From: an uncultured Acidimicrobiaceae bacterium | GTDB taxonomy: Bacteria > Actinomycetota > Acidimicrobiia > Spongiisociales > SHLN01 | NCBI GenBank assembly: GCA_947259275.1 | Contig: CAMYMH010000001.1 | Location: 108,287 to 172,286 of the forward strand | Direction: 5' to 3' | DNA: 64,000 nucleotides | In this document: in pieces, positions 3,801-52,716 of the stretch | Layout: each line of letters begins with the position of its first letter | Position numbering within the stretch: the first letter of the stretch is position 1 | Translations under genes and position numbers: made by a program | Notes under the pieces: generated by a model | The model's input: the letters and a program-made list of their open reading frames with translations, nothing else | The model's database searches: none | What the model was told of the DNA's origin: nothing

Positions 3801-4758
3801 GCGCTTCGTAACTGTCAATCCGGTCAACGACGCTCCGGTAGCCGGCCCCGATACGGGCGCCGTCGACGAAGACTCTGCGGTGACCGTCGACGTGCTGGTC
3901 AACGATGCCGACGTCGACGACGTGGTCCTCACCATTGCTTCGCTCGGAAGCGCTGCCAATGGGACCATCTCTGACAACGGCGACGGCACAGTCACCTACA
4001 CGCCCGATTCCGATTACGCGGGGACGGACGCCTTCACCTACACCGTGTGCGACTCCGGCGGTTTGTGTGACAGCCAGACAGTCACCCTGACCGTCGATCC
4101 CCTCAATGATGCGCCGGTGGTGGTGGATGATCCGGTGGTGGTGGCGGAGGATGCGGTGGTGACGGTGGATGTGTTGGCGAATGACTCGGATGTGGATGGG
4201 GATGGTTTGTCGGTGTCGGGGGTGTCGTCGCCGTCGAATGGTTCGGTGGTGGTGAATCCGGATGGCACTTTGACCTATACCCCGGAGGCTGATTTCTTCG
4301 GGAGTGATTCGTTCACCTATACCGCCACCGACGGTACCGCCAGCGTGGTCGGTGCGGTCACCGTCACGGTGGCGCCGGTCAACGATCCGCCGACCGCGCC
4401 GGGAGTACAGGCGGTCGGAGCCGGCGTCGGGGAACCGCCGCCGCCCCTTCCGATCGGCGATCCGGAGGGTGGCGTGTTGACGGTCACCGTAATCGACGGA
4501 GACCTGCCTCCCGGCCTCACCCTCAACCCCGACGGCAGCTGGGCCGGCGAAGCCACCGAGCAGGGCACCTTCGCCTTCACTGTTGAAGTCTGTGATGAGG
4601 CGGGCGCATGCACGGTGTCGGTGCTGTCGATCTCGATTGCCCTCCTGCCGGCCACCGGGATCCCGGCGGTTCTTGTCTCCCGGTTGGGGCTGCTCCTTGT
4701 GCTGCTGGGTTGGACCGTCCTGCGCTGGGGCAATCGGCTCCTCCCCTCAACTGAATAG
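832..4758 (+). CDS. LPXTG cell-wall-anchored surface protein with ~10 tandem ~100-aa cadherin-like/tandem-95 (VCBS-type) repeats and a C-terminal 'putative Ig' (He_PIG-like) domain
   Basis: N-terminal signal peptide (MFVDAQVHIRRILGALALIAVLLPTPANAG). Repeated unit '...PVNDAPVAxxDxxxxxEDxxVxxDVLANDxDxDGDxLxxxxxxxPxNGTVxxNGDGTxTYTPDxDFxGxDSFTYTxCDxxGxCDxATVTxTV'. C-terminus has LPATG (nt 4645-4659), then a hydrophobic stretch and an R-rich tail, which is a sortase sorting signal. Confidence 0.8.
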   Translation: MFVDAQVHIRRILGALALIAVLLPTPANAGNSPGGDAAGAWPGTFSEYTMADGSSIVDVQDNNPDYSDIWGGSADALPSTFFGSDGTNIFFRIRVRGNPEKNGGLQSTVFLVSIAVGGTQAAVVGLNGKPSSVDFVYTGNADGSVTGQVYTTPFTNDGSGTSAGARWSTAPDEGYFVDFQVPISAITALAPSVTPSTPVQLFFGTSQAANLSVINKDFMIGSDVSYVGLSTVTLSGAPAGVAPTAQDDTATVDQDGSVLVDVDANDVDLDGDLDPASAAVGTPPANGSLANNGNGTFTYTPDPGYRGPDSFTYTICDSIGLCDSATASVTVQPGGAPPVANADLARLAEDGSAVIDVAANDVDPDGDLDPTSAAVATPPVNGNLASNGDGTFTYTPDADYNGADSFTYSVCDLGGRCDSATVTLTVDPVNDPPVAVADTPTVLEDGSVVINAAANDTDVDGDLNPTTAVIAVPPARGTVAANGDGTFTYTPDPDFSGTDSFTYTICDSSGLCDSATVTVTVDPVNDDPTAAPDTFTFPEDTSPTLDVLANDGDLDGDPLTITGFDALSVAGGVVSCSAASCTYTPPPDYSGPDSFTYTIDDGNGGIGIATVTLNVVGVNDGPGINDDPVTVNEDTPLIVAVLANDTDPEGDTLSIDFFSQPPNGTVTDNGDGTLTYTPDPDFSGINSFTYRACDDGTPALCDEAVVTATVGPVNDAPVAGADSAATDEDVPVVFDVLANDFDQEGSALAISTYDVASTAGGTVACTPAGSCTYTPPPLYSGSDSFTYTVADGSGGTDTTTVTIAIGPVNNRPAAGADGASVTEDTPTTFIGATLLVNDSDPDFDPLTITAVADGAHGTAVVVGGDIVYTPAPDYSGGDTLIYTVCDPGGLCDTAQITVTVDPVNDDPVAKEDTATTDEDVPVTVSVLANDSDVEGNALTVTLIPTTPASGTAVINGDNTITYTPALDFFGVDEFQYEISDGNGGTATGWARFVTVNPVNDAPVAGPDTGAVDEDSAVTVDVLVNDADVDDVVLTIASLGSAANGTISDNGDGTVTYTPDSDYAGTDAFTYTVCDSGGLCDSQTVTLTVDPLNDAPVVVDDPVVVAEDAVVTVDVLANDSDVDGDGLSVSGVSSPSNGSVVVNPDGTLTYTPEADFFGSDSFTYTATDGTASVVGAVTVTVAPVNDPPTAPGVQAVGAGVGEPPPPLPIGDPEGGVLTVTVIDGDLPPGLTLNPDGSWAGEATEQGTFAFTVEVCDEAGACTVSVLSISIALLPATGIPAVLVSRLGLLLVLLGWTVLRWGNRLLPSTE
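1560..4390 (+). repeat. In-frame tandem array of ~300-bp coding repeats (about 9-10 copies) inside the surface protein gene
   Basis: Each ~100-aa unit has the conserved TYTP...DSFTY...CDxxGxCD core. The nucleotide-level similarity is visible by eye. Confidence 0.7.
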
Positions 4759-7928: not shown

Positions 7929-8399
7929 TCACATCAAGGCCAGTTCGGTCGAGATGTCGATGGCGTCCCGGATGCTGCGCGCCACCGGACAGGAATCGGC
8001 GTGCACGCGGTGGGCCCGCTCGACCTTCTCGCGGTCTTCGGCGGTTTCTACCCCCCGCAGTGTGTAGGACACGTGGATCCGCTTGACCACCAGGACCTTG
8101 CCCTCCTTTTCGATCTCACCCACGGTCTCTGATGTCAGGTTCCCGTTGCTTGCGTTGATGCCACGCGCCTCCAGCGCGCCTCCCAGGGTGCCGGTCAGTC
8201 AACCGCCGGCGGCGGCAACCAGGTAATCGATGGTGGTGGCGTCCGGGGGGAAGTCATCCGGGTCGACTCCGTAGTGCTCGGCGATCTCGCTGTGCACCCC
8301 GAAGGTGATGTGGGCGTCCTGGGTGGGAAGCCACGCTTTGCGCATCGGCCCCCGCACTCGCTCGATCTTCACCACCGACCGATACGCCACCTCTGACAT
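7929..8399 (-). CDS. OsmC/Ohr-family peroxiredoxin-like protein interrupted by an in-frame TGA exactly at the peroxidatic Cys position (selenocysteine candidate, or nonsense pseudogene)
   Basis: N-terminal part (ORF 8199..8663 from MSEVAYRSV…DYLVAAAGG) and C-terminal part (LTGTLGGALEARGI…HADSCPVARSIRDAIDISTELALM) are in the SAME frame. Only the TGA at 8199-8201 separates them. Family consensus at that spot is '…AGC(L/F)TxT…'. The second conserved Cys is present. Confidence 0.6.
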
Positions 8400-8520
8400 G
8401 CGACACCTCCTGACAGGAATGTAGCCGAGCCGGTTGGCGAAGCGCGCCCGCCGTAGACCACGCCGGTGGGAATGATCCAGCCCTCCCCTCTCCCGCTCAT
8501 GCGGGCAGCTACCCGAGAAT

Positions 8521-9585
8521 TCAACCTGGCGTCGAGAGCGGACCGGTAAGGGCAAGGACCAGCTCCTTGAGGAACCGGGCGGCGGGCGCTCCGTCGACGA
8601 AGGCGTGATCGAAGGTGAGCGACAACACCATTTGGTGACTGGCCACAACCGCCTCGGTGGCATCGAAGGCTGGGACTTTCCTCATCGCTCCCACACCGAG
8701 GATGGCAACCTGGGGCAGATTGATGATCGGGGTGAAGCCTTCAACACCGAGACTGCCGAGGTTCGTGACCGTGAAGGTTCCCCCCTGGTAGTCGGCGGTC
8801 GTGAGCGCCTTGGTCCGGGCTCTCTGCGCTAGCTCCTTGATACTGTCGGCGAGCTGGCTAATCGTGAGGGCATCGGCGTTGGCTATGACGGGAGCGACCA
8901 GACCGTCGTCGGTCTGAACCGCCACCGCCACGTTCACCGCCGCGGCCGGTGAGAAGTCATCGCCCGTCCGGGACCCGTTGAGTTCTGGATGATCGGCCAA
9001 GACCACCGCAGTGGCTTTGACGATCGCAGCCGAAATGTTGGTGGGGGGCTCCGGTCCGAAGTCGACGGTCGTAAACAGCGTCACCGGAGCCGTCTCGGCG
9101 TGGCTTTGCCGCATGTTGCGGGCGATCACCGCGCGTAGGCCCTGAAAACCAGTAGCAGTTCCGGCCTGCCCCCGCACGTCGTCCTCGGTGATTCGTCCGC
9201 CGGGACCGGACCCGGCGATGGCAGCGAGGTCGACGCCGAGCTCTCGACCCAGCCGCTTGGCCGCGGGTGAGGCCTTGACAGCCGGCCCCTGCTCAGGTGC
9301 GATCGCGGTGGTCGGCGCAGGCTCGGCGCCAGATCCGAGCGATTCGACGATCTGGCAGATCGGACTGGCTTGGGCAACCGGGTCGCCAATTGCGACCCGG
9401 TTGACAACATATCCACCGATCGGAGCGAACACCTCCGCCGCTACCTTCTCAGCCTGTACTTCGGCGATCAGCTGGTCCGGCTGGCAGGCCTGACCCTCGT
9501 CGACAAACCACGCCGTGATTACGGCATCCTCACCAGCTTCAGTGACGATCGGCATCGCCACATCGGTGGCCGCGTGCGTTGACAT
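8521..9585 (-). CDS. acoC: 2-oxo-acid/acetoin dehydrogenase E2 component (dihydrolipoamide acyltransferase; lipoyl domain + catalytic domain)
   Basis: Lipoyl domain (MPIVTEAGEDAVITAWFVDEGQ…) followed by an E2 catalytic domain (…SLTFDHAFVDGAPAARFL…). Start taken at MSTHAATDV, 7 nt after the E1β stop. Confidence 0.75.
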   Translation of the reverse strand: MSTHAATDVAMPIVTEAGEDAVITAWFVDEGQACQPDQLIAEVQAEKVAAEVFAPIGGYVVNRVAIGDPVAQASPICQIVESLGSGAEPAPTTAIAPEQGPAVKASPAAKRLGRELGVDLAAIAGSGPGGRITEDDVRGQAGTATGFQGLRAVIARNMRQSHAETAPVTLFTTVDFGPEPPTNISAAIVKATAVVLADHPELNGSRTGDDFSPAAAVNVAVAVQTDDGLVAPVIANADALTISQLADSIKELAQRARTKALTTADYQGGTFTVTNLGSLGVEGFTPIINLPQVAILGVGAMRKVPAFDATEAVVASHQMVLSLTFDHAFVDGAPAARFLKELVLALTGPLSTPG

Positions 9586-9592
9586 GTTTCGC

Positions 9593-10615
9593 CTAGCTCG
9601 AGGCCACCCCCGCCGCAGCCGCCACGATCCGCTCGGTGGAAGGGAGGGTCCATTCCTCGAGCCCGTGGCTGTACGGGATGGGAACATCAGGCGTCGCCAC
9701 CCGCACCGGTGGGGCATCGAGATACTCGAACGCTCCCTCCACCGCGGTGGTGATGATTTCGCCGGTCATGCCGAAGCTCTGGTAATCCTCGTCGACCACA
9801 ACCAGTCGCTGCGTCTTCTTCACGCTATTGATGACTGCTTGGCGGTCGAGTGGCACCAGCGATCGGAGATCGAGCACCTCGGCGGAAACACCCTGGCTTT
9901 CCAAGGTTTCGGCCGCATCGAGCGCTTTGTGGACCGAGAGCCCAATCGTGACCACCGTCACATCGGTGCCCTCACGAGCAATTCGCGCTTCGCCGATGGG
10001 AACCTCGTACGGCTCTTCAGGAACCGGTTCGGTGGCGCGGGGGTTGTTGACCATCCATCCGAGGCCCAAGGCTCCCTTGTGGAACATGTACACGACCGGG
10101 TTGTCATCTCGAATGGCCGAGATCATCAATCCCTTGGCGTCATACGCACTCGACGGCACCACCACTTTCATTCCCGGCAGGTGGGCAAACATCCCCCACA
10201 GCGTTTGGGAGTGCTGTCCGGCGTCTGAGTAGCCGCCTCCGACTGCAGTGGTCAAGACGACCGGCACCTTGATGTTGCCCCCGCTGAAGTAATGGATCTT
10301 GGCCATGTTGTTGTAGATCTGGTCCATACATACGCCGAAGAAATCCACAAACATCAATTCCACGATCGGCCGCATGCCGTTGATGGCAGCTCCCACCGCC
10401 GCGCCGATGAAGCCGGTCTCTGAGATCGGCGTGTCAATGATGCGATCCGGGCCGAACTTGGCCAGCAGGCCTTCGGTCGATCCGAAGATGCCGCCGTACA
10501 CGCCGACGTCTTCGCCCATGACGAAGACCGAGGGGTCGACGTCCATCTCTTGAAAGATCCCCTCCGCGATCGCTTTTTGCATCGTCAGTTTTCGATCAGT
10601 TGCAGCTGTGGTCAT
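9593..10615 (-). CDS. acoB: TPP-dependent dehydrogenase E1 component beta subunit
   Basis: Transketolase-like E1β sequence (…VFVMGEDVGVYGGIFGSTEGL…DTPISETGFIGAAVGAA…). Confidence 0.9.
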   Translation of the reverse strand: MTTAATDRKLTMQKAIAEGIFQEMDVDPSVFVMGEDVGVYGGIFGSTEGLLAKFGPDRIIDTPISETGFIGAAVGAAINGMRPIVELMFVDFFGVCMDQIYNNMAKIHYFSGGNIKVPVVLTTAVGGGYSDAGQHSQTLWGMFAHLPGMKVVVPSSAYDAKGLMISAIRDDNPVVYMFHKGALGLGWMVNNPRATEPVPEEPYEVPIGEARIAREGTDVTVVTIGLSVHKALDAAETLESQGVSAEVLDLRSLVPLDRQAVINSVKKTQRLVVVDEDYQSFGMTGEIITTAVEGAFEYLDAPPVRVATPDVPIPYSHGLEEWTLPSTERIVAAAAGVASS

Positions 10616-10636
10616 AGCGTCGAGCCCTTTCTGTGC

Positions 10637-11623
10637 TTATGCGAAGACATGGTCGAGTGCCGCTTCAGGCTTGGGATAGGGACTCGCCAGCGCGAACTCC
10701 AGGGCCTCTTCCACGATGGCGTGCTGGGCCTCCTGGATCGCGGTTTGCTCGTCGGCGGACAATATGCCCTCGTCGGCGAGGCGTTGCCCGAACACCACCA
10801 GGGGATCACGCTGGTTCATCTCTTCCTTGAACTCGTCATCCCGGTAGGCGTCGGCGTCACCCTCGAAGTGTCCCCACAGTCGATCGGTCTTGATTTCGAT
10901 CAGGCTGGGACCATCGCCGCGGCGGGCCCGGTCCATGGCTGCCCCCATCACCTCGTACACGGCCACCGGATCATTCTCCGACACCAACACTCCGGGAATC
11001 CCGTAGGCCGAGGCCCGATCGCTGTTGTCGGGAATCGCCGTCGAGGCGGCCTTGGGAACGGAGATGGCGTAGGCGTTGTCCTCACAGACGAAGACCACCG
11101 GCAGCTTCCACAGCGCGGCCAAATTGATGGACTCGTGGAAAGCTCCCTGGTTGGCGGCCCCTTCACCGAAGTACGAGAGGGCGATGTTGTCGGTGCCCTT
11201 GAACCGGAAAGCCAAGGCCGCGCCCACTGCAACCGGCATGCCTTCGCCGATAATGCCCGAGCAGCCAAAGTTCGGTTCAACTGAGAACAGGTGCATGTGG
11301 CCGCCTTTGCCGCGACCCAGGCCGGTCTCGCGTCCGAAGATCTCGGCGGCCATCTTGTTGAGATCCACCCCTTGGGCAATGGCTACATGGTGGGGGCGGT
11401 GGGTGGCAGTGATGGCGTCGCCGGGCTGCAGGTGAGGACGCATCCCGACCGCCACCGGCTCTTGCCCGGCAGCCAGATGCATCTCACCGGGAATCAGCCC
11501 CGCCGCGATATCAAATGCCGGCAGTTTGTCGGCGAAATACATTTCTCGGATGCGCTCCTCGAAACGCCTGATCTTGACCATCGTCTCGTACATGTCGACC
11601 AGATGCTCCTTCGGAATCTCCAT
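10637..11623 (-). CDS. acoA: TPP-dependent dehydrogenase E1 component alpha subunit
   Basis: E1α TPP-binding motifs (…[36 protein letters not shown]…). Confidence 0.9.
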   Translation of the reverse strand: [328 protein letters not shown]

Positions 11624-18375: not shown

Positions 18376-19464
18376 TCAAGGCATCCACGAGATGCCGGCG
18401 CCCACGGTGTTCACCGAAATCTCGTCGTCGAATGCAACCAGCTTTCCTTCGCGGCGGGGCTCCGCCTTGGCCTCGAGAGCCTTGAGCACCAGCTCCGGAG
18501 TAATCGGTAGCTCGGTGATCCACACGCCGGCGGCGTCGTGGACCGCAGCGGCGATGGCCGCGGGCTGGGCGTTGTTCGCCATTTCGCCGATGCCCTTGGC
18601 GCCGTAGGGACCATCGGCCGAAGGGTTCTCGATGATGATGGTCTCTAATTCCGGCAGGTCCTCCATGCCGGGCGAGTAGTACGAACCGAACCCATAGCCA
18701 CGGTGTTCGACCGACGGATAGTACGGGTAGGCGTTCTCCAAGACCGCCAGCCCGAGACCCATAATCGCCCCGCCTTGGATTTGGCCTTCGACCAGGGCTG
18801 GGTTGATCGCCTTCCCGACGTCGTAAGCCTGGATCAGCTTGAGCACTCGCACATTCCCGGTCTCGTCGTCGACCTCGACCTCGGCCGCACAGGCCGCATA
18901 CGAAATCGCAGAGTGGGGTGGGCTCGAGACGACCCCCGTCTCGGGGTCGAGAATCTCAGCGTACGGCTTCAGCTGGGCTCCGGTACCGGTGATCAGCTGG
19001 CCGTGACCGTAGGTAGCCGCCCCGGCCACATCCGCCACACTCAACTTCTCGGTCGGTGATCCCTTCACCATCACCTCGCCGTCTACCACCTCGAGGTCGT
19101 CGGCGCTTGCCTCCATTTCCAGCCCGGCAATCTCGAGGAGCTTGTGGCGCACCTCTTCGGCAGCCTTCAGCACCGCCTTGCCGGCCACGAAGGTCGCGCG
19201 TGAGGCAAAAGTCCCGGTGCACACCGGAGACGAGTCGGTGTTCGAGTTGTCGAACGTCACCCAGTCGTACGGCACTCCAATGGTTTCAGCGACGATCTGG
19301 CTCTGGATGGTCTTCGCTCCGTTGCCGATGTCCGCGGTTCCCGAGAACACATCGACCCGTCCGTCCGGCTTGACCTTGATCCAGGCCTGGGACGGATCAC
19401 CGTTCTGGTTCATGCCTGTGGGGTATTCGATTGCCGCGACGCCGCGGCCACGATGTACGGCCAT
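18376..19464 (-). CDS. Xanthine-dehydrogenase-family molybdopterin-binding subunit, C-terminal segment (NdhM-like, ~38 kDa)
   Basis: MoCo domain 2 motifs (…GTADIGNGAKT…GAKGIGEMANN…). The start ATG shares one nt with the upstream stop (TGATG). Confidence 0.75.
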   Translation of the reverse strand: MAVHRGRGVAAIEYPTGMNQNGDPSQAWIKVKPDGRVDVFSGTADIGNGAKTIQSQIVAETIGVPYDWVTFDNSNTDSSPVCTGTFASRATFVAGKAVLKAAEEVRHKLLEIAGLEMEASADDLEVVDGEVMVKGSPTEKLSVADVAGAATYGHGQLITGTGAQLKPYAEILDPETGVVSSPPHSAISYAACAAEVEVDDETGNVRVLKLIQAYDVGKAINPALVEGQIQGGAIMGLGLAVLENAYPYYPSVEHRGYGFGSYYSPGMEDLPELETIIIENPSADGPYGAKGIGEMANNAQPAAIAAAVHDAAGVWITELPITPELVLKALEAKAEPRREGKLVAFDDEISVNTVGAGISWMP

Positions 19465-20888
19465 CAGTTTCCCTCCGAGTCGTTGTCGACGCCGTGGACG
19501 AGCGCGTGGAGCGACGCGTGTTCGTGCCCTTCGCCGATCTGAGCTGCTAAGTGCTCCGGCAACATGTCACCGGAGCGCTGAGCTCGGCTCATCGACATGT
19601 ATGCATCATCGAGCGAATGATCGGTGGCTTCAGCGATGCTGAGGACCACATCGACCGTGCTCGGGTCCGGGTAGGTGATCATGTTCGGGGACGTGTCGTT
19701 GATCCGATTGGCGTTCTTCAAGCGAACCTCGAAGGGATCCAGACCGAGTACGTCGGCGATCCGGCTCATATGCGTCTCGGTGGCAAACGACACCGACGTC
19801 ACCCCGAAGCCCCTCATGGCGGTGGTGGGAACCCGATTGGTGAACACCACGTATCCGTCGAAGTGGAGATTGGGGATCGTGTATGCGCCGGTGTGGTGGA
19901 AGCTGTGCTTGGTGAGCCCATAGGGGGAGAACCGGGCGTAGGCACCCGAGTCGTGCAAGGTGAGCATCTTGCGACCGAGGATCCATCCGTCACTCGTGAC
20001 CGCATCGATGATTTCCATATGCCACGGCGCCCGTGTCGACGACGCCAGAAACTCCTCTTCCCTGGTCCACCGCCACTTGACGGGACGGTTCGCCTTCATG
20101 GCGGCCAGGGCGGTCACGGTCTCCGATGCGGTGTCCACTTTGCCGCCGAACCCGCCGCCCACGGTGCCACCCACCACCTTCAGGCGATTGAGCGGCACCT
20201 GGAGGTGAGCCGCCATCACCCCCAGCGAGAAGTAGAGCGCCTGGGTGCAGGAGTAGACCGTCAATCTCCCGTCTGGCTCGGGCACCACCATGGAGACCTG
20301 GGTCTCCAACGGGGCGTGCTCGATCGCGGCCGGGCGGTAGACGCCCGACACGATGGTGTCGGCCGCTTCGAAAGCCTCTTCGATGTTGCCCTTGCGAATC
20401 TGGCGGCGGTCCATCTCGCCTTCGAAATGGGGGTACCAGTTGCCCCAGCGGTGAACCGTGGGGGCATCGTCATCGAATGCCTTGCGCACGTCGAACAACG
20501 TGGGACGTTCCTCGTAATCGATTTCGATGGCTTCGACCCCGGCCCTGGCGGTGTCCGCGTCCTCGGCGGCCACCAGGGCGATGGGCTGGCCCTTGTAGCG
20601 GACCTCGTCCTTTGCCAGGAGCGGTTCATCAGCGGGAATGCCGAGGGCGCTCAGATGCCCGTACTCGAGGAGCGGGACGTCCGCATGGGTGATAACCGCC
20701 TCCACACCGGGCATGGCCTCGGCCTTGCTGGTGTCCATGCGAGTGATGGCGGCATGGTGATGGGGTGAGCGCAGGGCCTTGGCCCACAGCATTTCCCGGA
20801 CGCGGACGTCGTCGACGAATTGAGTCTGTCCTGTTACGTGTCCAACCCCGTCGTAGCGGGGAAGGCGGGCGCCTACCGCTTTCATCAT
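19464..20888 (-). CDS. Xanthine-dehydrogenase-family molybdopterin-binding subunit, N-terminal segment (NdhL-like, ~50 kDa; a/b-hammerhead + MoCo domain 1)
   Basis: MMKAVGARLPRYDGVGHVTGQTQFVDD… hammerhead domain. The start overlaps the 2Fe-2S gene stop (ATGA). Confidence 0.75.
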   Translation of the reverse strand: MMKAVGARLPRYDGVGHVTGQTQFVDDVRVREMLWAKALRSPHHHAAITRMDTSKAEAMPGVEAVITHADVPLLEYGHLSALGIPADEPLLAKDEVRYKGQPIALVAAEDADTARAGVEAIEIDYEERPTLFDVRKAFDDDAPTVHRWGNWYPHFEGEMDRRQIRKGNIEEAFEAADTIVSGVYRPAAIEHAPLETQVSMVVPEPDGRLTVYSCTQALYFSLGVMAAHLQVPLNRLKVVGGTVGGGFGGKVDTASETVTALAAMKANRPVKWRWTREEEFLASSTRAPWHMEIIDAVTSDGWILGRKMLTLHDSGAYARFSPYGLTKHSFHHTGAYTIPNLHFDGYVVFTNRVPTTAMRGFGVTSVSFATETHMSRIADVLGLDPFEVRLKNANRINDTSPNMITYPDPSTVDVVLSIAEATDHSLDDAYMSMSRAQRSGDMLPEHLAAQIGEGHEHASLHALVHGVDNDSEGN

Positions 20889-21397
20889 CGACCTCCTGTC
20901 TTCACAACGACATTGGGTTCTTCTGCGGTGATCGTGAGATCGAACTCGCTCTGGGTGGCGGCAGCGGCTATTGCATTGACGATTTTGAGGTAGCCGGTGC
21001 AGCGGCACACGTGGCCGCCCAGGGCTTCCTGGATCGCCTCCTTGTCGTCGCTACCGCCTGCGTCGAGGTAGGCAGTGGCGGCCACCACCATGCCCGGCGT
21101 GCAGAATCCGCACTGCGCCGCGTAGTGATGGACGAAGGCCTGCTGCACTGCCGACAGGTTTTCGGATGTGCCCAGACCCTCGAGCGTCGTCACCGCCGCG
21201 CCGTTGAGGGAACCGACCGCGGTTAGGCAGGACCGCTGCGGCCGGCCATCGACGAGTACGGTGCAGGCCCCGCAGCCACCGGCTTCGCACCCGGCTTTGG
21301 CGCTGACGACGTTGAGTTCGTTTCGTAGAACTCGCAAGAGAGGCGTTAGCGGTGGGCTCGAGATTTGACGGGATACCCCGTTGAGCGTGATGTTCAC
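20885..21397 (-). CDS. (2Fe-2S)-binding small subunit of xanthine-dehydrogenase-family enzyme
   Basis: CEAGGCGACTV and CGFCTPGM…CRCTGY cluster-binding motifs. Confidence 0.9.
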   Translation of the reverse strand: MNITLNGVSRQISSPPLTPLLRVLRNELNVVSAKAGCEAGGCGACTVLVDGRPQRSCLTAVGSLNGAAVTTLEGLGTSENLSAVQQAFVHHYAAQCGFCTPGMVVAATAYLDAGGSDDKEAIQEALGGHVCRCTGYLKIVNAIAAAATQSEFDLTITAEEPNVVVKTGGR

Positions 21398-30938: not shown

Positions 30939-31036
30939 GGGTACCAGGGCTCGATTTGGTGAGCCCGCTCCAACCCACCCCTCAGTCGGGTAGGCTCGGC
31001 GCAGCGTCCACGAGCCCATCCAAGGAGGGCAGAGCA

Positions 31037-32461
31037 GTGTCTGAGACCCATCGTGCCGTCATCCCCTTCGAGTCGCTCGACCCTCTCACGATCGGGGCCA
31101 GCGGCAACGAAGACCTCATCAACCGGGAGACTATTGAGATCGACATCCCGGCCGCCAACCTGATGGCGGACATTCGGCCGGACGAACCGGAGCCGATTGC
31201 AGACGCCACCGCGGCCGCGGCCGCCGCACTGGAAAGCCCCCACTCCGGGCCTCGCTTCTCCGAGCTTCTCAACGGTGCCGGCAGCGTGGCCGTGGTCATC
31301 GATAACCAGTTCCGGCCGACACCCACGTCGAAGTTACTGCCCGCCGTCCTCGATGCAATCGAGGCAGCCGGCATCACAGACGCCCGCGTGGTGTGCGCCA
31401 ACGGGAAGGTCTTTCCGATGTCGGAGTCGGATACCGTGCAGAAGATCGGCGAGGACAATCTCGCCCGTATGGAACAGATGGGCGTTCCCTTCATGCAGAA
31501 TGACCCGGGTAACCCCGCCGCTTACACCTACATCGGGATCTCGTCGCGCGGCACGCCGGTTTGGCTCCACACCGCGGTGGCCAGCGCCGATGTCAAGATC
31601 ACCGTCGGCCAAGCGCAGTCCAATCACTGGGGTGCCGGCGGCGGTGGCAAGCTCATCCTTCCCGGCGTCGTGTCGGACGCCACCATCGAGTCGAACCACG
31701 CCGCCTTCGTCACTTCGCCGCAGACCCACTATGGCGCAGTGGCCGGCCCGATGCGGTCCGACATCGATGAGGTGGCCACCATGTGCGAGCTGACGGCGAC
31801 GATGAATGTCATCCTCGACACCCATGGCCGGGTCTCCGATGTGCTCTTCGGCGCCCATCCCGATGCTCATCGCGAATCCATCAGGCGCTTCAACGCAACC
31901 TATGCGTACGACAACCCGGTGGCCGAGCATGGACCCGCCGACATCGCCATCTGCGGCGTGTTCGCCCCGACCGATCATTTGTTCTTCCATACCGGGTGGG
32001 GCGCCATGTCGACCGACCTGGTCGTTGGCGAGGGCGGCACCATCATCTACTGCTCGCCCTCTCCCGGTGTCCACACCGACCTGGGTGACTTCCCCGGACT
32101 GGCGCTGATGGATCTGATGCAGCCGTACATGCCGCCGACTCGGGAGAACTACGAGCGGGTACTGCATGACATCCACCACCGGGCGATCGAGATGTGGTCG
32201 GGCTGCATCTGGGTGCCGATCTACGAGGTAATGACGCGCAAGCACCTGACGATGGTGACCCTCGAGGAGAACTTGGCGATGGCTGCAGATATCGGCATCG
32301 ACGCCACCACGTCCCTGGACGAAGCCTTCGGGGCGGCCATGGGGCGCCATGGCCCCGACGCCAAGGTCATCGTCCTTCCATACGCGCGATACCAACTGCC
32401 CAAGAACGCCATCCGGATGGATGCGGAGGACATTACGACGCTCGAGCAGTTACGTCTGTGA
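31037..32461 (+). CDS. larA: LarA-family nickel-pincer-nucleotide-dependent 2-hydroxyacid racemase/epimerase homolog (DUF2088 + LarA C-terminal domain)
   Basis: Strong SD AAGGAGG 8 nt before GTG 31037. LarA-like sequence throughout (…VVIDNQFRPTP…HTGWGAMSTD…). Substrate unknown. Confidence 0.75.
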   Translation: MSETHRAVIPFESLDPLTIGASGNEDLINRETIEIDIPAANLMADIRPDEPEPIADATAAAAAALESPHSGPRFSELLNGAGSVAVVIDNQFRPTPTSKLLPAVLDAIEAAGITDARVVCANGKVFPMSESDTVQKIGEDNLARMEQMGVPFMQNDPGNPAAYTYIGISSRGTPVWLHTAVASADVKITVGQAQSNHWGAGGGGKLILPGVVSDATIESNHAAFVTSPQTHYGAVAGPMRSDIDEVATMCELTATMNVILDTHGRVSDVLFGAHPDAHRESIRRFNATYAYDNPVAEHGPADIAICGVFAPTDHLFFHTGWGAMSTDLVVGEGGTIIYCSPSPGVHTDLGDFPGLALMDLMQPYMPPTRENYERVLHDIHHRAIEMWSGCIWVPIYEVMTRKHLTMVTLEENLAMAADIGIDATTSLDEAFGAAMGRHGPDAKVIVLPYARYQLPKNAIRMDAEDITTLEQLRL

Positions 32462-32467
32462 CCAGCA

Positions 32468-32752
32468 GTGCCCTCGGGATCCAGCCGGCGGATCAGAGGC
32501 AGGACCACCATCGCCGAGATTCTCAGGATGTACCCGGATGGGCGCGCCTACCGGCTCATGCAGCAGTTGCATTGGGCCTGCCCCATGTGCGGTTTCGCCC
32601 CGCGCGAGCCGCTGGCAATGGCGGCCAAGAAGCACAAGAACTCGCCGCTGGCCGTACTCGAGGCCTTTCGAGCTCTCGACGAGCATGACGGACCAAGCGC
32701 AGAGATGATCGCCCGGGCGGCGGAACGACATAGGAAGTACGAGATGCCATGA
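32468..32752 (+). CDS. DUF1858-like small redox-disulfide (CxxC) protein
   Basis: …TIAEILRMYPDGRAYRLMQQLHWACPMCGF…, i.e. the ScdA/YtfE N-terminal-like DUF1858 with a CPMC motif. Sits between larA and larE. Confidence 0.55.
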   Translation: MPSGSSRRIRGRTTIAEILRMYPDGRAYRLMQQLHWACPMCGFAPREPLAMAAKKHKNSPLAVLEAFRALDEHDGPSAEMIARAAERHRKYEMP

Positions 32753-33546
32753 CTACTGCCGAAGCAAGATTGGCGGACGAACTTCGCTCGCTGGAGCGGG
32801 TTGTCGTCGCCTTTTCCGGTGGCGTGGATTCGGCGACCCTGGCCTATGCCGCGTTGCGCGTCCTCGGTCCTGACCGGATGCAGGCGGTCACGGCCGATTC
32901 CGATTCACTGGCGACCGGTGAGCTCGAGCACTGTGCCGACTTGGCCCGGCAATGGGATATGCCGTGGCGGTCGGTGGCCACCAACGAGCTCGCCAACGTC
33001 GACTACGTTGCAAACCAAGGCGACCGCTGCTTCTGGTGCAAGGATGCCCTCATGGATGCCCTGACACCCGTAGCCGCCGATCTTGGGGCGGCGATCACCC
33101 TCGGCGTCAACGTGGACGACCTCGGCGATCACCGACCCGGGCAGGAGGCCGCCCGTCAGCGCGGGGCCCGCTTCCCGCTGGTAGACGCCGGCCTTCGAAA
33201 GTCAGACATCCGTGAACTGGCCAAAGGGTGGGGTCTCCCGATCTGGGACCGGCCCGCCATGCCCTGCCTCAGCTCACGCGTACCGTACGGCACGCCGGTG
33301 ACCGTGCGAGTGCTGTCGCGCATCGACCGCGCCGAGATGGAGTTGCGGCGCCTCGGCTTCGGCGACCTCCGGGTTCGCCACTACGACGACACCGCACGGA
33401 TCGAGGTGCCGCTCTCGAAGATGACGGAGGTGGTGGAGCAGAGTGAGGTGATCGTCACCGCCTTGCAGCGCATCGGGTACCGCTACGTGACGCTCGATCT
33501 CGCCGGCCTGCGTTCCGGCAACCTCAACTCAGCGCTGTCGCAATGA
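32749..33546 (+). CDS. larE: LarE, ATP-dependent sulfur transferase for nickel-pincer cofactor (PP-loop ATP pyrophosphatase family); three conserved Cys suggest the [4Fe-4S] catalytic type
   Basis: PP-loop VVAFSGGVDS. Cys in CFWCK plus PCLSSRVPYG. Confidence 0.8.
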   Translation: MTTAEARLADELRSLERVVVAFSGGVDSATLAYAALRVLGPDRMQAVTADSDSLATGELEHCADLARQWDMPWRSVATNELANVDYVANQGDRCFWCKDALMDALTPVAADLGAAITLGVNVDDLGDHRPGQEAARQRGARFPLVDAGLRKSDIRELAKGWGLPIWDRPAMPCLSSRVPYGTPVTVRVLSRIDRAEMELRRLGFGDLRVRHYDDTARIEVPLSKMTEVVEQSEVIVTALQRIGYRYVTLDLAGLRSGNLNSALSQ

Positions 33547-34214
33547 ATACGTCTGACGACGGGCGAGTGGTGCATCTGGGCGACACGCGCCTCGATGTCG
33601 ATCGACGACGCCGCATCGGTATTCCCGAAGCGGTATACGCCGAGGGGAAGACCGCGGCTCAATGCGTCCGAATCGTCGAAGCCCTCCTCTCGGCCAACGG
33701 TGACCCGGTGATCGTCACCCGGACCAGCCCGGAGCAGCGCGAGTCCCTGGCGGTGCTCGAGCCCACCGCCACCTGGACGGCCACGCTCACCTGGCAGCAC
33801 GCCGAGGCGCAAGCTGTGAAACCGGTCGCCATTGTGTCGGGAGGCACGTCCGACCAGCCGGTGGTGGATGAGTGTCTCGGCACCCTGGCGGCGATGGGCG
33901 TTCCGGTTGAGACACATCGCGACGTGGGGGTGGCCGGCATCCACCGACTGGTCGACGTTCTGCCAAGTCTCGAGGGTGCCTCGGTCGTCGTGGCAGTTGC
34001 TGGTATGGAGGCGTCGCTGCCGACCGTTCTCGGCGGCCTGGTGTGGGCGCCGATTATCGGCGTACCCACCTCTACCGGCTACGGCTCGAGCTTCGAAGGC
34101 ATCACGGCGCTGTTGTCAATGCTCTCGTCGTGCGCTCCCGGGATCAGCGTTGTGGGAATTGACAATGGCTACGGGGCGGCTTGCGCGGCGTTGCGGAGCC
34201 TGGCGCACGACTGA
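33543..34214 (+). CDS. larB: LarB, nickel-pincer cofactor biosynthesis carboxylase/hydrolase (PurE-like)
   Basis: PurE-like C-terminal half (…VAIVSGGTSD…VVVAVAGMEASLP…GVPTSTGYG…). Confidence 0.8.
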   Translation: MNTSDDGRVVHLGDTRLDVDRRRRIGIPEAVYAEGKTAAQCVRIVEALLSANGDPVIVTRTSPEQRESLAVLEPTATWTATLTWQHAEAQAVKPVAIVSGGTSDQPVVDECLGTLAAMGVPVETHRDVGVAGIHRLVDVLPSLEGASVVVAVAGMEASLPTVLGGLVWAPIIGVPTSTGYGSSFEGITALLSMLSSCAPGISVVGIDNGYGAACAALRSLAHD

Positions 34215-35386
34215 TGGCGCGGGCACTGTGGCTCAACCCGGCGGTCGGCGTTTCCGGTGACATGTTGCTCGGGGCGTTGATCGACGCCGGCGCCGATGAG
34301 GCGAGCGTGCGCAAGGCGCTGGAGGCGCTCAACGTGACCGGATGGCATCTGGAGGTCATGGACGTCGAGCGCCGCGGGCTCCGCTGCCGTCACGCCAGGG
34401 TGACCGCCGAGGTTGCCGAAGAGCCGAGAACGTGGTCTGCCATCGATGCCTTGCTCGCCGGGGCCGATCTTCCGCCGTCGGCCTCACACGGGGCGCGGGC
34501 GACCTTCCGCCGACTCGGCGAGGTCGAGGCCGAACGGCATGGTGTGGGAATCGATGACGTGCACTTCCATGAGGTGGGCGCGGTGGATGCGATCGTCGAC
34601 ATCGTGGGGTGTTGGGCGGCCCTCGAGACATTGGAGGTTGGCGAGGTATGGTCAGGTCCGGTCGGGCTCGGGACGGGAACGGTGGCCTCATCGCACGGTG
34701 TGCTGCCGCATCCGGCTCCGGCCGTGCTCGGCCTGCTCGAAGGTGTTCCGGTCGTGGGGCTCGACTCGGCGAAGGAGACGGCCACTCCGACCGGCGTCGC
34801 CTTGCTGGTGACGATGGTGGATGAGTGGGGGACGGTTCCCTCCGGACGGCTCGAACGTTCGGGTCTTGGCGCCGGGAGCCGGGATGAGACAACTCATCCC
34901 AACGTGCTGGCCGCCGTGATGATCGAAACCGACGACTCCGCCGAAGTGGACGCCGTGTTGATCGAGACGACACTCGACGACGTAACTCCCGAGATTCTGG
35001 GTCACGTATTAGAACGTGCCCTGGATGCCGGCGCCGACGATGCCTGGCTGGTCCCCGTCGTCATGAAGAAGGCGCGCCCGGGTCACGAGCTGCGCATCCT
35101 GTGCGCCCCGGCGGTGCAGGAGCGTCTGATCGGTCTGGTGGCCGCCGAGACCGGCACACTGGGCATGCGGACCTATCGGGTTGGTAAACACATATTCCCG
35201 AGAGGGTTCGAGGAAGTCTTGTTGGATGGAGAGACCATCCGGATGAAGGTCGGTCCCTATGGGGCCAAGCCGGAGGCGGCCGACGTGATCCGGGTGGCGG
35301 ACGCCACCGGAAGGAGCGCTCGATCGGTGGCAGCCGAGGCGCTGGTCCGATGGGCGAGCCGCGTCACCAACGTGAAGGAGTCCTGA
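34214..35386 (+). CDS. larC: LarC, CTP-dependent nickel insertase (DUF111), unsplit
   Basis: …GVSGDMLLGALIDAGAD…FHEVGAVDAIVDIVG… DUF111 signature. The start shares one nt with the larB stop (TGATG). Confidence 0.8.
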   Translation: MARALWLNPAVGVSGDMLLGALIDAGADEASVRKALEALNVTGWHLEVMDVERRGLRCRHARVTAEVAEEPRTWSAIDALLAGADLPPSASHGARATFRRLGEVEAERHGVGIDDVHFHEVGAVDAIVDIVGCWAALETLEVGEVWSGPVGLGTGTVASSHGVLPHPAPAVLGLLEGVPVVGLDSAKETATPTGVALLVTMVDEWGTVPSGRLERSGLGAGSRDETTHPNVLAAVMIETDDSAEVDAVLIETTLDDVTPEILGHVLERALDAGADDAWLVPVVMKKARPGHELRILCAPAVQERLIGLVAAETGTLGMRTYRVGKHIFPRGFEEVLLDGETIRMKVGPYGAKPEAADVIRVADATGRSARSVAAEALVRWASRVTNVKES

Positions 35387-36025: not shown

Positions 36026-36946
36026 TCAGAGCAACCCGGCCGCCTCGAGGGCCCGTTTGACCGCTTCGAGCTCGGCGGCGGGTAGCTTGACCAAAGGTGG
36101 CCGCACCACGGCACGCGGCTGCCGACCCAGCAGCACCAACGCCTCCTTGATACGGTTATGCATGTCGACGGCGGGTTCGGCATAGAAGCACTGTGCCAGC
36201 GGGTAGATGCGGTCGTTGATGGTCCGGGCGGCGGGCAGATCGCCGGATTGCACTGCGTTGAAGAGCGCCACCTGCAAGTCGGCAATGACGCTGCCCGAAC
36301 CGGAGAGCAGGCCGTTGCATCCCATCGTCAAGGAGGCCATCAGCCAGGCGCTGTTGGTCGACAGCACATTGATTGGCCGAGGTAGCCCCTGGAGAACCCG
36401 GACATGGCGCTCGTGGATGGCCCCACTGTTCCAGTCCTTGACGGCGCATATGGTCGGGACCTCCTCCACCATCTGCAACAGGGTGTCCATGGGGTAGGCG
36501 TAGTCGCCCGAGTATTGGAAGGCGATGAGCGGCAAATCGCTGGCGGCGGCGATGGTTCTGAAGTGAGCCAACGCCATCTCCGGCCGGCGCTGCCCGTGCA
36601 TCATCCCGATGGTGTGGGGCGGGAACACCAGGAGCGCCGAGGCTCCAGCCGCCTGGGCCATGGCTGCGATCCGGGCGGCTTCGAGGCTCCCGTCGGCGTA
36701 GACGCCGCTGATGACGGGCAAGGCGTTTCCCACCTCATCGAGTGCCAGGTCGAGGACCCGGTGCTGCTCGTCGACGGTGCAGGCGTGCACCTCCGAGGCG
36801 TGCCCGTTGACGGTGATGGCCGAGATCCCGACCACCCCGGCAACGTCGCGGAGGTGGCGCCGCGTGGCGTCGTTGTCGATAGAGAGATCTTCGTGGAATG
36901 CGAGAAGCGTCGCCGGGATGACCCCATCGGGCATGTAGGAACTCAT
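36026..36946 (-). CDS. DapA-family class I aldolase (dihydrodipicolinate synthase/N-acetylneuraminate lyase family)
   Basis: MSSYMPDGVIPATLLAF…GISAITVNGHASE…FQYSGDYAY… The long 750-aa ORF is an antisense extension over the + strand xanthine-dehydrogenase-family gene. Confidence 0.8.
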   Translation of the reverse strand: MSSYMPDGVIPATLLAFHEDLSIDNDATRRHLRDVAGVVGISAITVNGHASEVHACTVDEQHRVLDLALDEVGNALPVISGVYADGSLEAARIAAMAQAAGASALLVFPPHTIGMMHGQRRPEMALAHFRTIAAASDLPLIAFQYSGDYAYPMDTLLQMVEEVPTICAVKDWNSGAIHERHVRVLQGLPRPINVLSTNSAWLMASLTMGCNGLLSGSGSVIADLQVALFNAVQSGDLPAARTINDRIYPLAQCFYAEPAVDMHNRIKEALVLLGRQPRAVVRPPLVKLPAAELEAVKRALEAAGLL

Positions 36947-37021
36947 GGCCTCCTCGCGTCCGTGAACCGGATTATGGCGCGCCTGATCTGGGCAGGAAGC
37001 AGGCGAAGTAGGGTGCGGCCT

Positions 37022-39382
37022 ATGAGTTGGGTCGGGAAGCCTCTGGAGCGCATCGAGGATGAGACCCTGCTGCGCGGGCGGGGGCGTTTCATCGATGATC
37101 TCAATCCGGTGCCCGGCGCCTACCACGCCGCCGTGGTCAGGTCTCCCTACGCGGCCGCCCATCTCACCAGCATCGACGCTTCGGCCGCCCTCGCAAGTCC
37201 CGGCGTGCTGGCAGTTGTCACCGGCCAACAGGTTGCCGAGTTGACCAAGCCGTTTCATGCGGTGATCGACACACCGGTTGCCTTCCGGGCCGCGGCCGTT
37301 GAGGAAGTCCGATACGCCGGCGAACCGGTGGCGGTGGTGGTCGCCCGGGACCGCTACCTGGCCGAGGACGCCGCCGAGATGGTGGCGGTCGAGTATGAGC
37401 CCGCCGCCCCGGTGCTGACGCCGCTTGACGCGGTCGCGGCAGGCGCGATCGTCTCCGACCGATCCTTCGTCTACGGCGATCCGCTCGGCAAGCTGGAGGA
37501 GGCCGATCTCGTCGTGACGGAATCCTTCACGTTTCCTCGCTGGACGGGAACGCCTGTCGAGGGCTTCGGCGTGATAGCCGACTGGTCGGCCGCCGACGAC
37601 GCCCTCACCGTGTGGACCAATTTTCAGGGCCCATTCACGCTGTATATGGCCGCGGCCGCCGCCCTCGGGCTCCCGCGATCCAAGCTCCGGCTCATCACTC
37701 CACCCGACTCGGGTGGGAGCTTCGGCATCAAGGCCGCGGTATACACATACGTCGTGCTGATGGGAGCGGTTTCCCGCCATCTCGGCGTTCCGGTTCGCTG
37801 GATCGAGGACCGCCTCGAGCACTTGGCCGCCAGTGCTGCCTCCACCGAACGGGTCACCGAGGTCACGGCCGGCTTCACCAATGACGGCAAGCTGATCAGC
37901 CTCGGCTATGACGTCGTCGAGGACGTCGGTGCCTATCTGCGTGCCCCGGAACCGGCCACCCTCTACCGGATGCACGGCTCGCTCAGCGGTGCCTATACCG
38001 TGCAGGATGTCTCGGCTCGCAACCGGGTGGTGTTGACCAACCGTTGCCCAACCGGCCTCAACCGCGGATTCGGTGGTCCCCAGCTGTATTTCGCCCTCGA
38101 AGGCACCATGGCCATCGCGGCAGCCCGGCTCGGCATCGATCCCGTCGACCTGGCCCATCGCAATCTGGTGGCGGCCGGGGAGTTCCCTTACACGACCCCA
38201 ACGGGTGCCATCTACGACTCCGGCGACTACGCCGTATGCCTGGACGACGCGCTGGCAACGGTTGGATATGCCGAACACCGCCGCCGGCAGGCCGCGGCGC
38301 GCGCCGACGGGCGGTTGGTCGGAATCGGGATTGCGTGTGTGGTCGAGCCGTCGGTCTCCAACATGGGCTACATCTCACTCGCCGAGACCGCCCAAGAGCG
38401 CTCGGGAGGCCTGCCCAAGTCGGGAAACACCGAGGGAGCAACCATTTCAATGTCCCCCGGGGGCGGGGTGGTCGTGCAGATCTCGACGACGCCGCAGGGC
38501 CAGGGCCACCGGACGGTCGTCTCTCAGGTGGTCGCAGATCAACTCGGCCTCGAGCCGGGGGACATCGAGGTGGTCTCCGTTCTCGACACCCACGTCAATG
38601 CGTGGTCGATCGCGTCCGGGAACTACTCCTCTCGTTTTTCGGCGATGGGTGTGGCGGCGGTGCAGCAGGCAGCTGAGGAGTTGACGGCGGCGATCAAACA
38701 GATTGCCGCTCACGAGCTGGAGTGCGCGGTCCTCGACGTTGAGCTGCGCGATGGGAAAGCCGCCGTCGTCGGCCAGCAGGATGCCGCGGTCTCGCTGCGG
38801 CGCATCGCCGGCAAGGCTCACTGGAATCCCGAGGCGCTGCCCGACGGCGTTGCTCCGGGGCTTCGTTTCACATCATTTGTCTCGGCCCCCGGCCTCGAAC
38901 CGGCGGCGAGTGACGACACGATCGCCTCCTCCGCCGTCCATGGCTTCGTGGCCGACGTAGCCGTGGTCGAGGTGGATCGGGAAACCGGCGCGGTCACCGT
39001 TCTCGACTACGCAACCACCCACGACGCCGGGACGCTCCTCAATCCGCGCCTGGTCGAAGGCCAGGTCAGGGGCGGCTTCGCGCACGGCGCAGGCGTCGCC
39101 CTCATGGAGCGTCTCGCCTACGACGAGGACGGCAACTTGATCACCGCCAGCTTCATGGACTACCTATGCATGACCGCGTCGGAGGTGCCGCCGCTGCGGT
39201 CATCGCATATCGAGACGCCGTCACCGTTCACCGCCCTCGGTGCCAAGGGCCTTGGCGAGGGCAACACGATGAGCGCGCCGGTGACCATCGCAAACGCGGT
39301 ACGAGATGCGCTCGGCATCGAGCGGCTCGAGCTGCCGCTGACGCCTTCCCGGGTGTGGGAGCTCATCGAGCCCCTGTCATGA
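37022..39382 (+). CDS. Xanthine-dehydrogenase-family molybdopterin-binding large subunit (2-furoyl-CoA dehydrogenase HmfA-like / CoxL-like)
   Basis: MSWVGKPLERIEDETLLRGRGRFIDD… Has a GFGGPQ-type motif rather than CoxL's VAYRCSFR. Confidence 0.8.
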   Translation: MSWVGKPLERIEDETLLRGRGRFIDDLNPVPGAYHAAVVRSPYAAAHLTSIDASAALASPGVLAVVTGQQVAELTKPFHAVIDTPVAFRAAAVEEVRYAGEPVAVVVARDRYLAEDAAEMVAVEYEPAAPVLTPLDAVAAGAIVSDRSFVYGDPLGKLEEADLVVTESFTFPRWTGTPVEGFGVIADWSAADDALTVWTNFQGPFTLYMAAAAALGLPRSKLRLITPPDSGGSFGIKAAVYTYVVLMGAVSRHLGVPVRWIEDRLEHLAASAASTERVTEVTAGFTNDGKLISLGYDVVEDVGAYLRAPEPATLYRMHGSLSGAYTVQDVSARNRVVLTNRCPTGLNRGFGGPQLYFALEGTMAIAAARLGIDPVDLAHRNLVAAGEFPYTTPTGAIYDSGDYAVCLDDALATVGYAEHRRRQAAARADGRLVGIGIACVVEPSVSNMGYISLAETAQERSGGLPKSGNTEGATISMSPGGGVVVQISTTPQGQGHRTVVSQVVADQLGLEPGDIEVVSVLDTHVNAWSIASGNYSSRFSAMGVAAVQQAAEELTAAIKQIAAHELECAVLDVELRDGKAAVVGQQDAAVSLRRIAGKAHWNPEALPDGVAPGLRFTSFVSAPGLEPAASDDTIASSAVHGFVADVAVVEVDRETGAVTVLDYATTHDAGTLLNPRLVEGQVRGGFAHGAGVALMERLAYDEDGNLITASFMDYLCMTASEVPPLRSSHIETPSPFTALGAKGLGEGNTMSAPVTIANAVRDALGIERLELPLTPSRVWELIEPLS

Positions 39383-45541: not shown

Positions 45542-45951
45542 GCCAGCAGTCCGCGGGCGGCGTAGGCAGCCGCGGCCTCCCGCACCAGCCCGGCAATGGC
45601 CGGTGCGTCGTAGTCCGTCTCCAACCGCCGAGCCCACTGTTCGAGATCCTCCAGCGAGGAGCGGCCCGGCCGCAGCGCCGTGTAGATCTCGAGGATCACC
45701 GGGTTGGGGACTTTGGCCAGCTCGGCTGCCCGGTCGAGGTTGTCGGCCAGCTGATCGCGCCGGGCGGTCCGGGCCACTTCGGCCTGCATGCGCAGCGTCT
45801 CGGGAGTTGTCCGGAACTCGTCGTCGGGAATGGCACCCCGTCGGAGTTGCTCGAGCGTGAGGTCGGTGAGGGCCATGCCGCCCGGTGTCCGCACCAGATC
45901 GGGACGACGAGTACCGATCGGATAGTCGGTTCGAGGATCGAAGTCGGCCAT
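45538..45951 (-). CDS. Diol/glycerol dehydratase small (γ, PduE/DhaB3-like) subunit
   Basis: MADFDPRTDYP…TPETLRMQAEVARTARRDQLADNLDRAAELAKVP…ILEIYTALRP matches the PduE core. Encoded upstream of the αβ fusion. Confidence 0.75.
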   Translation of the reverse strand: MADFDPRTDYPIGTRRPDLVRTPGGMALTDLTLEQLRRGAIPDDEFRTTPETLRMQAEVARTARRDQLADNLDRAAELAKVPNPVILEIYTALRPGRSSLEDLEQWARRLETDYDAPAIAGLVREAAAAYAARGLLA

Positions 45952-52665: not shown

Positions 52666-52716
52666 CCCCAGGCGGCGTGCGGTAGGGTCAGGTACGGCGA
52701 GCCAAGGAGCGAGATC

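Follow-up and report, generated by a model that had tools for sequence, protein, structure and literature searches.

The 64,000-nucleotide stretch analysed here (the window), from contig CAMYMH010000001.1 of an uncultured Acidimicrobiaceae bacterium, carries on its minus strand a gene of the OsmC/Ohr superfamily whose reading frame contains one in-frame TGA. Two open reading frames (ORFs), 8199..8663 and 7929..8123, had been listed at this place, and translation confirms the original prediction that they share a single frame and are parted by nothing but the TGA at 8201..8199. This is the sole internal stop of the coding sequence (CDS) 8399..7929, which reads MSEVAYRSV...DYLVAAAGG, the TGA, LTGTLGGALEARGI...HADSCPVARSIRDAIDISTELALM and the terminal stop; the whole minus-strand product is MSEVAYRSVVKIERVRGPMRKAWLPTQDAHITFGVHSEIAEHYGVDPDDFPPDATTIDYLVAAAGG, the internal stop, LTGTLGGALEARGINASNGNLTSETVGEIEKEGKVLVVKRIHVSYTLRGVETAEDREKVERAHRVHADSCPVARSIRDAIDISTELALM and the terminal stop. 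The listed start at 8663 is an artefact, the frame running on into the last part of the upstream gene, and the true start is the ATG at 8399..8397, in agreement with the N-termini of homologues, whose full-length members have 154-168 amino acids (aa). Neither a sigma-70-like promoter nor an intrinsic terminator was detected near it, and the G+C content of the window is about 65%. How is this TGA read? We consider it highly probable, from comparison of sequences, that the UGA is decoded as selenocysteine (Sec), residue 67 of one intact 156-residue OsmC/Ohr redox protein.

With Cys put in place of the internal stop, residues 57-152 match the Pfam family PF02566 (OsmC) with E=2e-12 and 47.8 bits, against a gathering cutoff of 27.5. 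More specialised models score the protein below membership: 24.8 bits for the NCBIfam SACOL1771 peroxiredoxin model (cutoff 166), 19.7 bits for TIGR03562 (OsmC; cutoff 85.8) and 17.7 bits for TIGR03561 (Ohr; cutoff 88.85). The structure modelled with AlphaFold2 was that of the Cys-containing homologue P0027, which is 55% identical to the window protein, and the model has a mean predicted local distance difference test (pLDDT) score of 95.2. Its top 50 matches in the PDB are all OsmC or Ohr proteins, with E down to 8.7e-9, and the match covers the whole length of the model. The best is 2onf (Foldseek E=8.7e-9, template modelling (TM) scores 0.75/0.83), followed by the Ohr structures 1usp and 2bjo and the OsmC structure 1qwi; TM scores for Ohr/OsmC structures are 0.64-0.72, normalised to the query. 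The window protein belongs to the OsmC/Ohr superfamily. The TGA had been said to lie where this family has its conserved Cys, and it does: in sequence and profile alignments, the Sec column coincides with a Cys that is conserved in 2onf, 2opl and 1ml8 (E. coli YhfA), and it falls within the long central helix formed by residues 57-79 of the model. One weak alignment to OhrB would move the catalytic residue by four positions (FGGALE/LGGALE, E ~0.3-0.7), but we set it aside as a chance local match, since column 67 is supported both by the Sec/Cys column and by three PDB alignments of better quality. A second candidate redox residue, Cys137, falls in the column of the Cys conserved toward the C-terminus in 2onf, in 1ml8 and in the Ohr structures 9jxc/9jx6 (CPYS motif), while 2opl has Ser in that column; Cys is found there in 118 of the 119 aligned homologues that have a residue at the position, and it is invariant in alignment A3. 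Both redox positions of the OsmC/Ohr peroxidase site, Sec/Cys67 and Cys137, are therefore retained. D58, 9 residues N-terminal to Sec67, is also invariant, and R79, R107 and R128 are conserved.

Whether other species carry Cys or TGA at this column had been proposed as a check on the Sec interpretation. We scanned the GTDB representatives, one genome per species, with the downstream peptide pattern GT[FL]GGAL[ER][AV]R as the sole criterion, and retained the best 80 of 586 relatives, each from a distinct species, as ranked by tblastn with a Cys-containing query. Because selection used the peptide only and the ranking used a Cys query, the 80 loci are not biased toward TGA. TGA nevertheless occupies the Sec column in 80/80 related loci, and TGC or TGT is found there in other homologues. 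Classified by the titles of their records, the 80 loci comprise 18 Acidimicrobiia, 7 other Actinomycetota (including the isolate Haloechinothrix halophila), 18 Chloroflexota, 11 Acidobacteriota, 14 Desulfobacterota/delta/Myxococcales, 3 NC10 and 9 others. Adding the window gene gives the 81 species over which the following counts were made. Invariant residues lie both before the TGA (Y6, S8, P25, G34, H36, T56, D58) and after it (L68, G70, T71, R79, C137), and synonymous sites outside the hairpin described below are near saturation, at 1.2-2.0 bits. From this near-saturation it follows that the copies are old and have evolved independently, under purifying selection across one continuous frame. 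The codon after the UGA encodes Leu (CTG/CTC/CTA/CTT) in 75/81 sequences and is ATG in 6/81, giving UGAAUG. In the H. halophila homologue the region around the Sec column would read ...DYVVASAAG-U-LAGTFGGALEAR.

The hairpin GCGCGC-UGGAG-GCGCGU lies exactly where the original prediction had placed it, at 8163-8179. Its 6-bp GC stem begins 19 nt past the A of the UGA, the whole element extends 19-35 nt downstream, and the motif has only this one match in the whole window. Across the 81 species the codons GGC GCG CUG GAR GCG CGY are almost invariant. Third-position entropies at the four-fold degenerate codons for G74, A75, L76, A78 and R79 are 0.63, 0.42, 0.52, 0.47 and 0.79 bits, respectively, the five lowest values of all four-fold sites in the gene; next comes the codon directly 3' of the UGA, with 0.86 bits, and all the remaining sites have at least 1.23 bits. 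The hairpin is thus maintained by selection at synonymous sites. Across the alignment 96.5% of stem cells are paired, and 75/81 minimum free energy (MFE) folds have a hairpin loop that contains G and begins 24-34 nt from the U of the UGA. Classical covariation is uninformative because the stem hardly varies, so the structure rests on conservation and on one register-shifted variant. This variant, GCGG(U)GCC-CUUGA-GGCCCGC, is found at the same place in seven Chloroflexota/Dehalococcoidia genes that carry GCC-CUU in the 5' arm (L030, L035, L045, L053, L063, L071 and L078), with the bulged U present in 4/7 folds. In a sister clade (L088/L089), Glu77 is changed to Ala, giving the loop UGGCA, and the stem is unchanged. 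Together, the register-shifted variant and the sister clade argue for structure over bare sequence. Five of the seven register-shifted genes, plus L040, have AUG directly after the UGA.

Residues at the Sec column were also tallied among the 120 best protein-database matches. Cys is present in 13 of them, e.g. in Flavobacterium and Tenacibaculum, and 21 are fragments of ~85-95 aa without a residue at the column, most of which begin at the codon just 3' of the TGA and several of which are titled 'OsmC family protein'. Trp is reported in 84. In the one Trp-clade cluster examined in DNA (P0066, JGI) the codon is TGA, so its Trp is an artefact of translation with an alternative code (code 4); P0018 is a Trp entry with a genuine TGG. 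The sister clade GGU-LLGTF-x-GAL-A-ARQ (L088, L089; JGI metagenome contigs) is hidden behind such Trp gene calls. At the DNA level, the Cys homologues L084, L086 and L092 have TGC, TGT and TGC at the Sec column, and their downstream codons (GGT GGA GCA TTA AGA GTT CGT; GGG GGG TCA CTG GCA GTT AGA; GGC GGA GCA CTG GAG GCG CGC) cannot form the hairpin. Conservation of the hairpin among orthologues, a further check that had been proposed, thus comes out in favour of the Sec interpretation, the element being near-invariant in the 81 species and lacking in Cys homologues. A few sequences have some other codon in place of the TGA: TTA (Leu) in L081-L083 (three assemblies, codon ~10199-10201), TGG (Trp) in L090 and L091 (two assemblies) and TCA (Ser) in L093. 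The hairpin is kept in all of these, in L093 together with a Leu-to-Pro change in the hairpin loop. Such non-Cys single-base replacements may be recent Sec-loss or inactivated copies.

By reference to the established bacterial Sec pathway, the hairpin of codons 74-79 would be a bacterial selenocysteine insertion sequence (SECIS) that recruits SelB-GTP-Sec-tRNASec while the UGA is in the ribosomal A site, leading to Sec insertion and no termination. The fold and the alignment of the Cys column suggest that Sec67, on the long central helix, would be the nucleophile and would react with a hydroperoxide or similar oxidant. Cys137 could then resolve Sec67 through a selenenylsulfide, to be re-reduced by an external thiol reductant. 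Hydroperoxide reduction would be the most probable chemistry.

Several observations weigh against this interpretation. Neither selA, selB, selD nor tRNA-Sec was found within the 64-kb window, which was surveyed with Pfam/NCBIfam on about 45 ORFs, with ARAGORN and with Rfam, and no Sec machinery was found in ~1.3 Mb of related loci. With ARAGORN, the window yielded no tRNA and the related loci no tRNA-Sec, and a tblastn pre-screen of those loci with E. coli SelD/SelB as bait matched only IF-2 and an EF-G-like GTPase. In favour of the interpretation, by contrast, several host lineages are documented Sec users: Desulfobacterota and Dehalococcoidia (BSepDB), and within the Acidimicrobiia the order Actinomarinales. 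A further point against it is that the single sequence folds unremarkably, with a z-score of 0.57 and 144/200 shuffles that are as stable or more so. Among synonymous recodings made with window codon usage (2,000 in all), 32% equal the native local hairpin, and 75% reach an equal or lower 54-nt MFE. The caution that a hairpin alone is weak evidence in GC-rich DNA was therefore well placed, and we do not count the folding of one sequence as support for a SECIS. Among the 81 species no double-sided compensatory changes were found in the stem, the changes being one-sided, from G-C to G-U, and neither the hairpin nor the window has an Rfam match at gathering score, the permissive mode returning only a chance match (E=7.3). 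On the side of function, the peroxidase chemistry is inferred, the scores of the window protein fall well short of the cutoffs of the subfamily models for OsmC and Ohr, and the nearest solved relatives, 2onf, 2opl and YhfA/1ml8, carry no assigned function.

What else might account for the TGA? A lone in-frame stop resembles a fresh nonsense mutation, and the source record does call two fragments, of 66 and 64 aa. However, the identical TGA in 80/80 independent assemblies from several phyla, the purifying selection that persists on both sides of it and the constraint on the hairpin at synonymous sites exclude a private TGC-to-TGA change in this genome, whether as a recent pseudogene or as a base-call error; we give it practically no credence, and the original prediction of a Sec-containing OsmC-like protein is supported. 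Scarcely more credible is a split gene, in which a 66-aa N-terminal peptide would be followed by an 89-aa C-terminal peptide restarting at the next codon by translational coupling. Public annotation indeed starts the C-terminal fragment at the codon just past the TGA, and the restart codon is ATG in 6/81 sequences, but in the other 75 it is a Leu codon, a poor start, without a preceding ribosome-binding site. Such a break would interrupt the long central helix precisely at the catalytic residue, which would be lost. Uninterrupted Cys homologues exist, and a split gene would not require a hairpin 19 nt further on whose synonymous sites are under constraint. It is also very unlikely that the hairpin aids recoding of the UGA to a residue other than Sec, either Cys by way of a tRNASec-like tRNA (without SelA/SelD) or Trp through low-level read-through. 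Systems with tRNASec-like tRNACys have been reported, Sec machinery was not found in the window or related loci, and the occasional TGG, TTA and TCA homologues that keep the hairpin indicate that other residues can be accommodated at the site, at least for a time. On the other hand, a Cys/TGA pair at a redox site with a hairpin near the UGA is the standard Sec signature (PMC1088965), many of the host lineages are known Sec users, and the variants are rare, three kinds in ~120 database matches, all a single base away from TGA.

A different question is whether a selenoprotein at this locus must be a hydroperoxide reductase. It could instead belong to a YhfA-like branch with another redox role or a role in sulfur/selenium handling, an explanation that we find possible but the less probable of the two. 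In its favour, the nearest solved relatives (2onf, 2opl, 1ml8/YhfA) are uncharacterised, the OsmC, Ohr and SACOL1771 models score 18-25 bits against cutoffs of 86-166, and no conserved gene neighbourhood points to a pathway. Against it stand the whole-length match of the fold to Ohr and OsmC and the retention of both peroxidase Cys positions, Sec/Cys67 and Cys137, which leave hydroperoxide reduction by a Sec-containing enzyme as the preferred reading.

OsmC-like proteins (UxxT, COG1765/YhfA-type) were reported as a selenoprotein family in the Sargasso Sea by Zhang, Fomenko and Gladyshev in 2005 (PMC1088965), and they recur in subsequent surveys and reviews. The original prediction was therefore right that OsmC-like families include selenoproteins, although the published family is a different subfamily from that of the window gene. 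The prototype of the 2005 family, AACY01145085, scores 157.4 bits on the NCBIfam model NF041052, 'OsmC-related (seleno)protein' (cutoff 95), which identifies that model with the published family; on the same model the window protein reaches 23.6 bits, below membership. Both belong to the PF02566 superfamily and have a UGA in the column that holds the conserved N-terminal catalytic Cys, their U columns being aligned by BLASTP. Each also retains another conserved Cys toward the C-terminus, carries a SECIS-like hairpin just past the UGA and has Cys homologues. Yet identity to the prototype is 35% across just 40 residues (E=0.004). The redox motif is U-L-T-G-T in the window protein, with Thr at +2 and +4, versus U-L-L-T (UxxT) in the prototype; the proposed Sec is residue 67 of 156, past a conserved N-terminal extension, versus residue 40 of 137; and the hairpin sequences, GCGCGC-UGGAG-GCGCGY versus UGAAGCG-GUA-CGCUUCA, are unrelated. 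On account of the low NF041052 score, the weak similarity to the prototype and the differences in motif, Sec position and hairpin, the window gene, as judged from its sequence, represents a distinct candidate selenoprotein subfamily of the OsmC superfamily. It lies outside the curated models but follows the principle of the published family, Sec taking the place of the catalytic Cys. Compared with the Ohr/OsmC thiol peroxidases (TIGR03561, TIGR03562; 1usp, 2bjo, 1qwi, 1n2f), it has the same whole-length fold and likewise two conserved redox residues, on the central helix and in the C-terminal C-P-x motif, but would carry Sec in place of the peroxidatic Cys, and its sequence scores are far under the family cutoffs. 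The best profile match (E=1.5e-4), like the best structure match, is Ta0195 of Thermoplasma acidophilum (2onf), an uncharacterised OsmC-like protein in which both Cys positions align, although it is archaeal, has Cys rather than Sec and is only 17% identical.

Our literature searches found no paper specifically on this subfamily, and large homology-based surveys may have counted it under 'OsmC-like'. We put at about even the chance that it constitutes a second, not specifically described OsmC-superfamily selenoprotein subfamily, phylogenetically very broad, missing from curated models and with a near-invariant SECIS that dictates the peptide G-A-L-E-A-R. The scan of GTDB species representatives gave at least 586 relatives, from Actinomycetota, Chloroflexota, Acidobacteriota, Desulfobacterota, NC10 and others, and the gene is carried by the complete genomes OZ241372.1, CP070746.1, NZ_KI632509.1 and CBDCGU010000003.1. 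In keeping with its absence from curated selenoprotein models, its genes are systematically split in GenBank/RefSeq, one part being called a 'hypothetical protein' and the other, truncated, an 'OsmC family protein', and it is mis-annotated in all the public records examined. The source record of the window has the 66-aa and 64-aa fragments, the RefSeq entry for H. halophila, WP_034274595.1, is a 66-aa 'hypothetical protein', UCE52948.1 and UCE57165.1 are separate fragments in a Desulfobacterales genome, and JGI translations have Trp at the Sec site through a code-4 call. A dedicated subfamily model would mend at least several hundred genes and would raise selenoproteome counts for Actinomycetota, Chloroflexota and Acidobacteriota from soils, sediments and the sea. 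The gene also marks its host as a probable selenium user. The practical consequence is one of annotation and selenoproteome counts, with no conceptual surprise: OsmC-like selenoproteins have been known since 2005, and the understanding of Sec decoding and of OsmC proteins is unchanged. The subfamily does offer a compact natural Sec/Cys pair for asking why an OsmC-type active site prefers Sec, and direct tests are feasible since the cultured isolate H. halophila YIM 93223 has a homologue.

The OsmC-like gene lies 121 nt downstream of a 2-oxoacid dehydrogenase operon (8521..11623) on the same strand (Table 1). Ohr has been described as lipoyl-dependent. A functional tie to the lipoylated E2, although the juxtaposition hints at one, was rejected as a conserved association, E1 genes being nearby in only 1/80 loci (L013), and clustering of the flanking ORFs yielded no gene family present in more than 10 of the 80 loci.

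Table 1. Features of the OsmC-like locus and of other genes in the window
Feature	Coordinates	Strand	Remarks
OsmC-superfamily selenoprotein CDS (candidate)	8399..7929	minus	156 codons including proposed Sec67; from translation, Pfam and homologue lengths
Shine-Dalgarno-like AGGAGG	8411..8406	minus	6 nt 5' of ATG 8399..8397; read from sequence
In-frame UGA, proposed Sec codon, residue 67	8201..8199	minus	Where the OsmC fold has its conserved catalytic Cys
Putative bacterial SECIS hairpin	8179..8163	minus	Overlaps codons G74-A-L-E-A-R79
Hairpin 5' arm GCGCGC	8179..8174	minus	
Hairpin loop UGGAG	8173..8169	minus	
Hairpin 3' arm GCGCGU	8168..8163	minus	
TGT, Cys137, proposed resolving Cys	7989..7991	minus	HADSCPVARSI motif
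Terminal stop TGA	7931..7929	minus	End of OsmC-like CDS
E1-alpha	10637..11623	minus	
E1-beta	9593..10615	minus	
Lipoylated E2	8521..9717	minus	
Molybdenum hydroxylase ORF	19464..21008	minus	Ald_Xan_dh_C, MoCoBD_1
Molybdenum hydroxylase ORF	18376..19464	minus	MoCoBD_2
Lar_N	30956..32461	plus	
NAD-synthase-like	32749..33546	plus	May be LarE
AIR-carboxylase-like	33543..34214	plus	May be LarB
Ni-insertion protein LarC	34181..35386	plus	

Elsewhere in the window, a xanthine-dehydrogenase/CoxL-type molybdenum hydroxylase large subunit is present as two minus-strand ORFs (18376-21008) that join at a one-base TGATG overlap; a frameshift, a split gene and an error in sequencing are all conceivable causes. 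Another copy of such a large subunit, this one intact, is found at 36404..39382. We screened the window for further TGA-interrupted genes by G+C content at third codon positions (GC3), but the screen was too unspecific, its 33 candidates being adjacent genes or antisense frames. A plus-strand cluster at 30956-35386 resembles the system for the nickel-pincer cofactor of the lactate racemase type. On the minus strand, a 772-aa ORF (43319-45637) combines in a single chain two subunits, large and medium, of a B12-dependent diol/glycerol dehydratase (Dehydratase_LU, Dehydratase_MU). The plus strand encodes a 1308-aa protein (832-4758) made up nearly entirely of about ten Big_9/cadherin-like repeats, probably a surface adhesin. 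Finally, a small gene may have escaped annotation on the plus strand (52666-52920), where an 84-codon stop-to-stop stretch with very high GC3 (0.87) lies in frame between the annotated genes for a thiamine pyrophosphate (TPP) enzyme and a zinc alcohol dehydrogenase.

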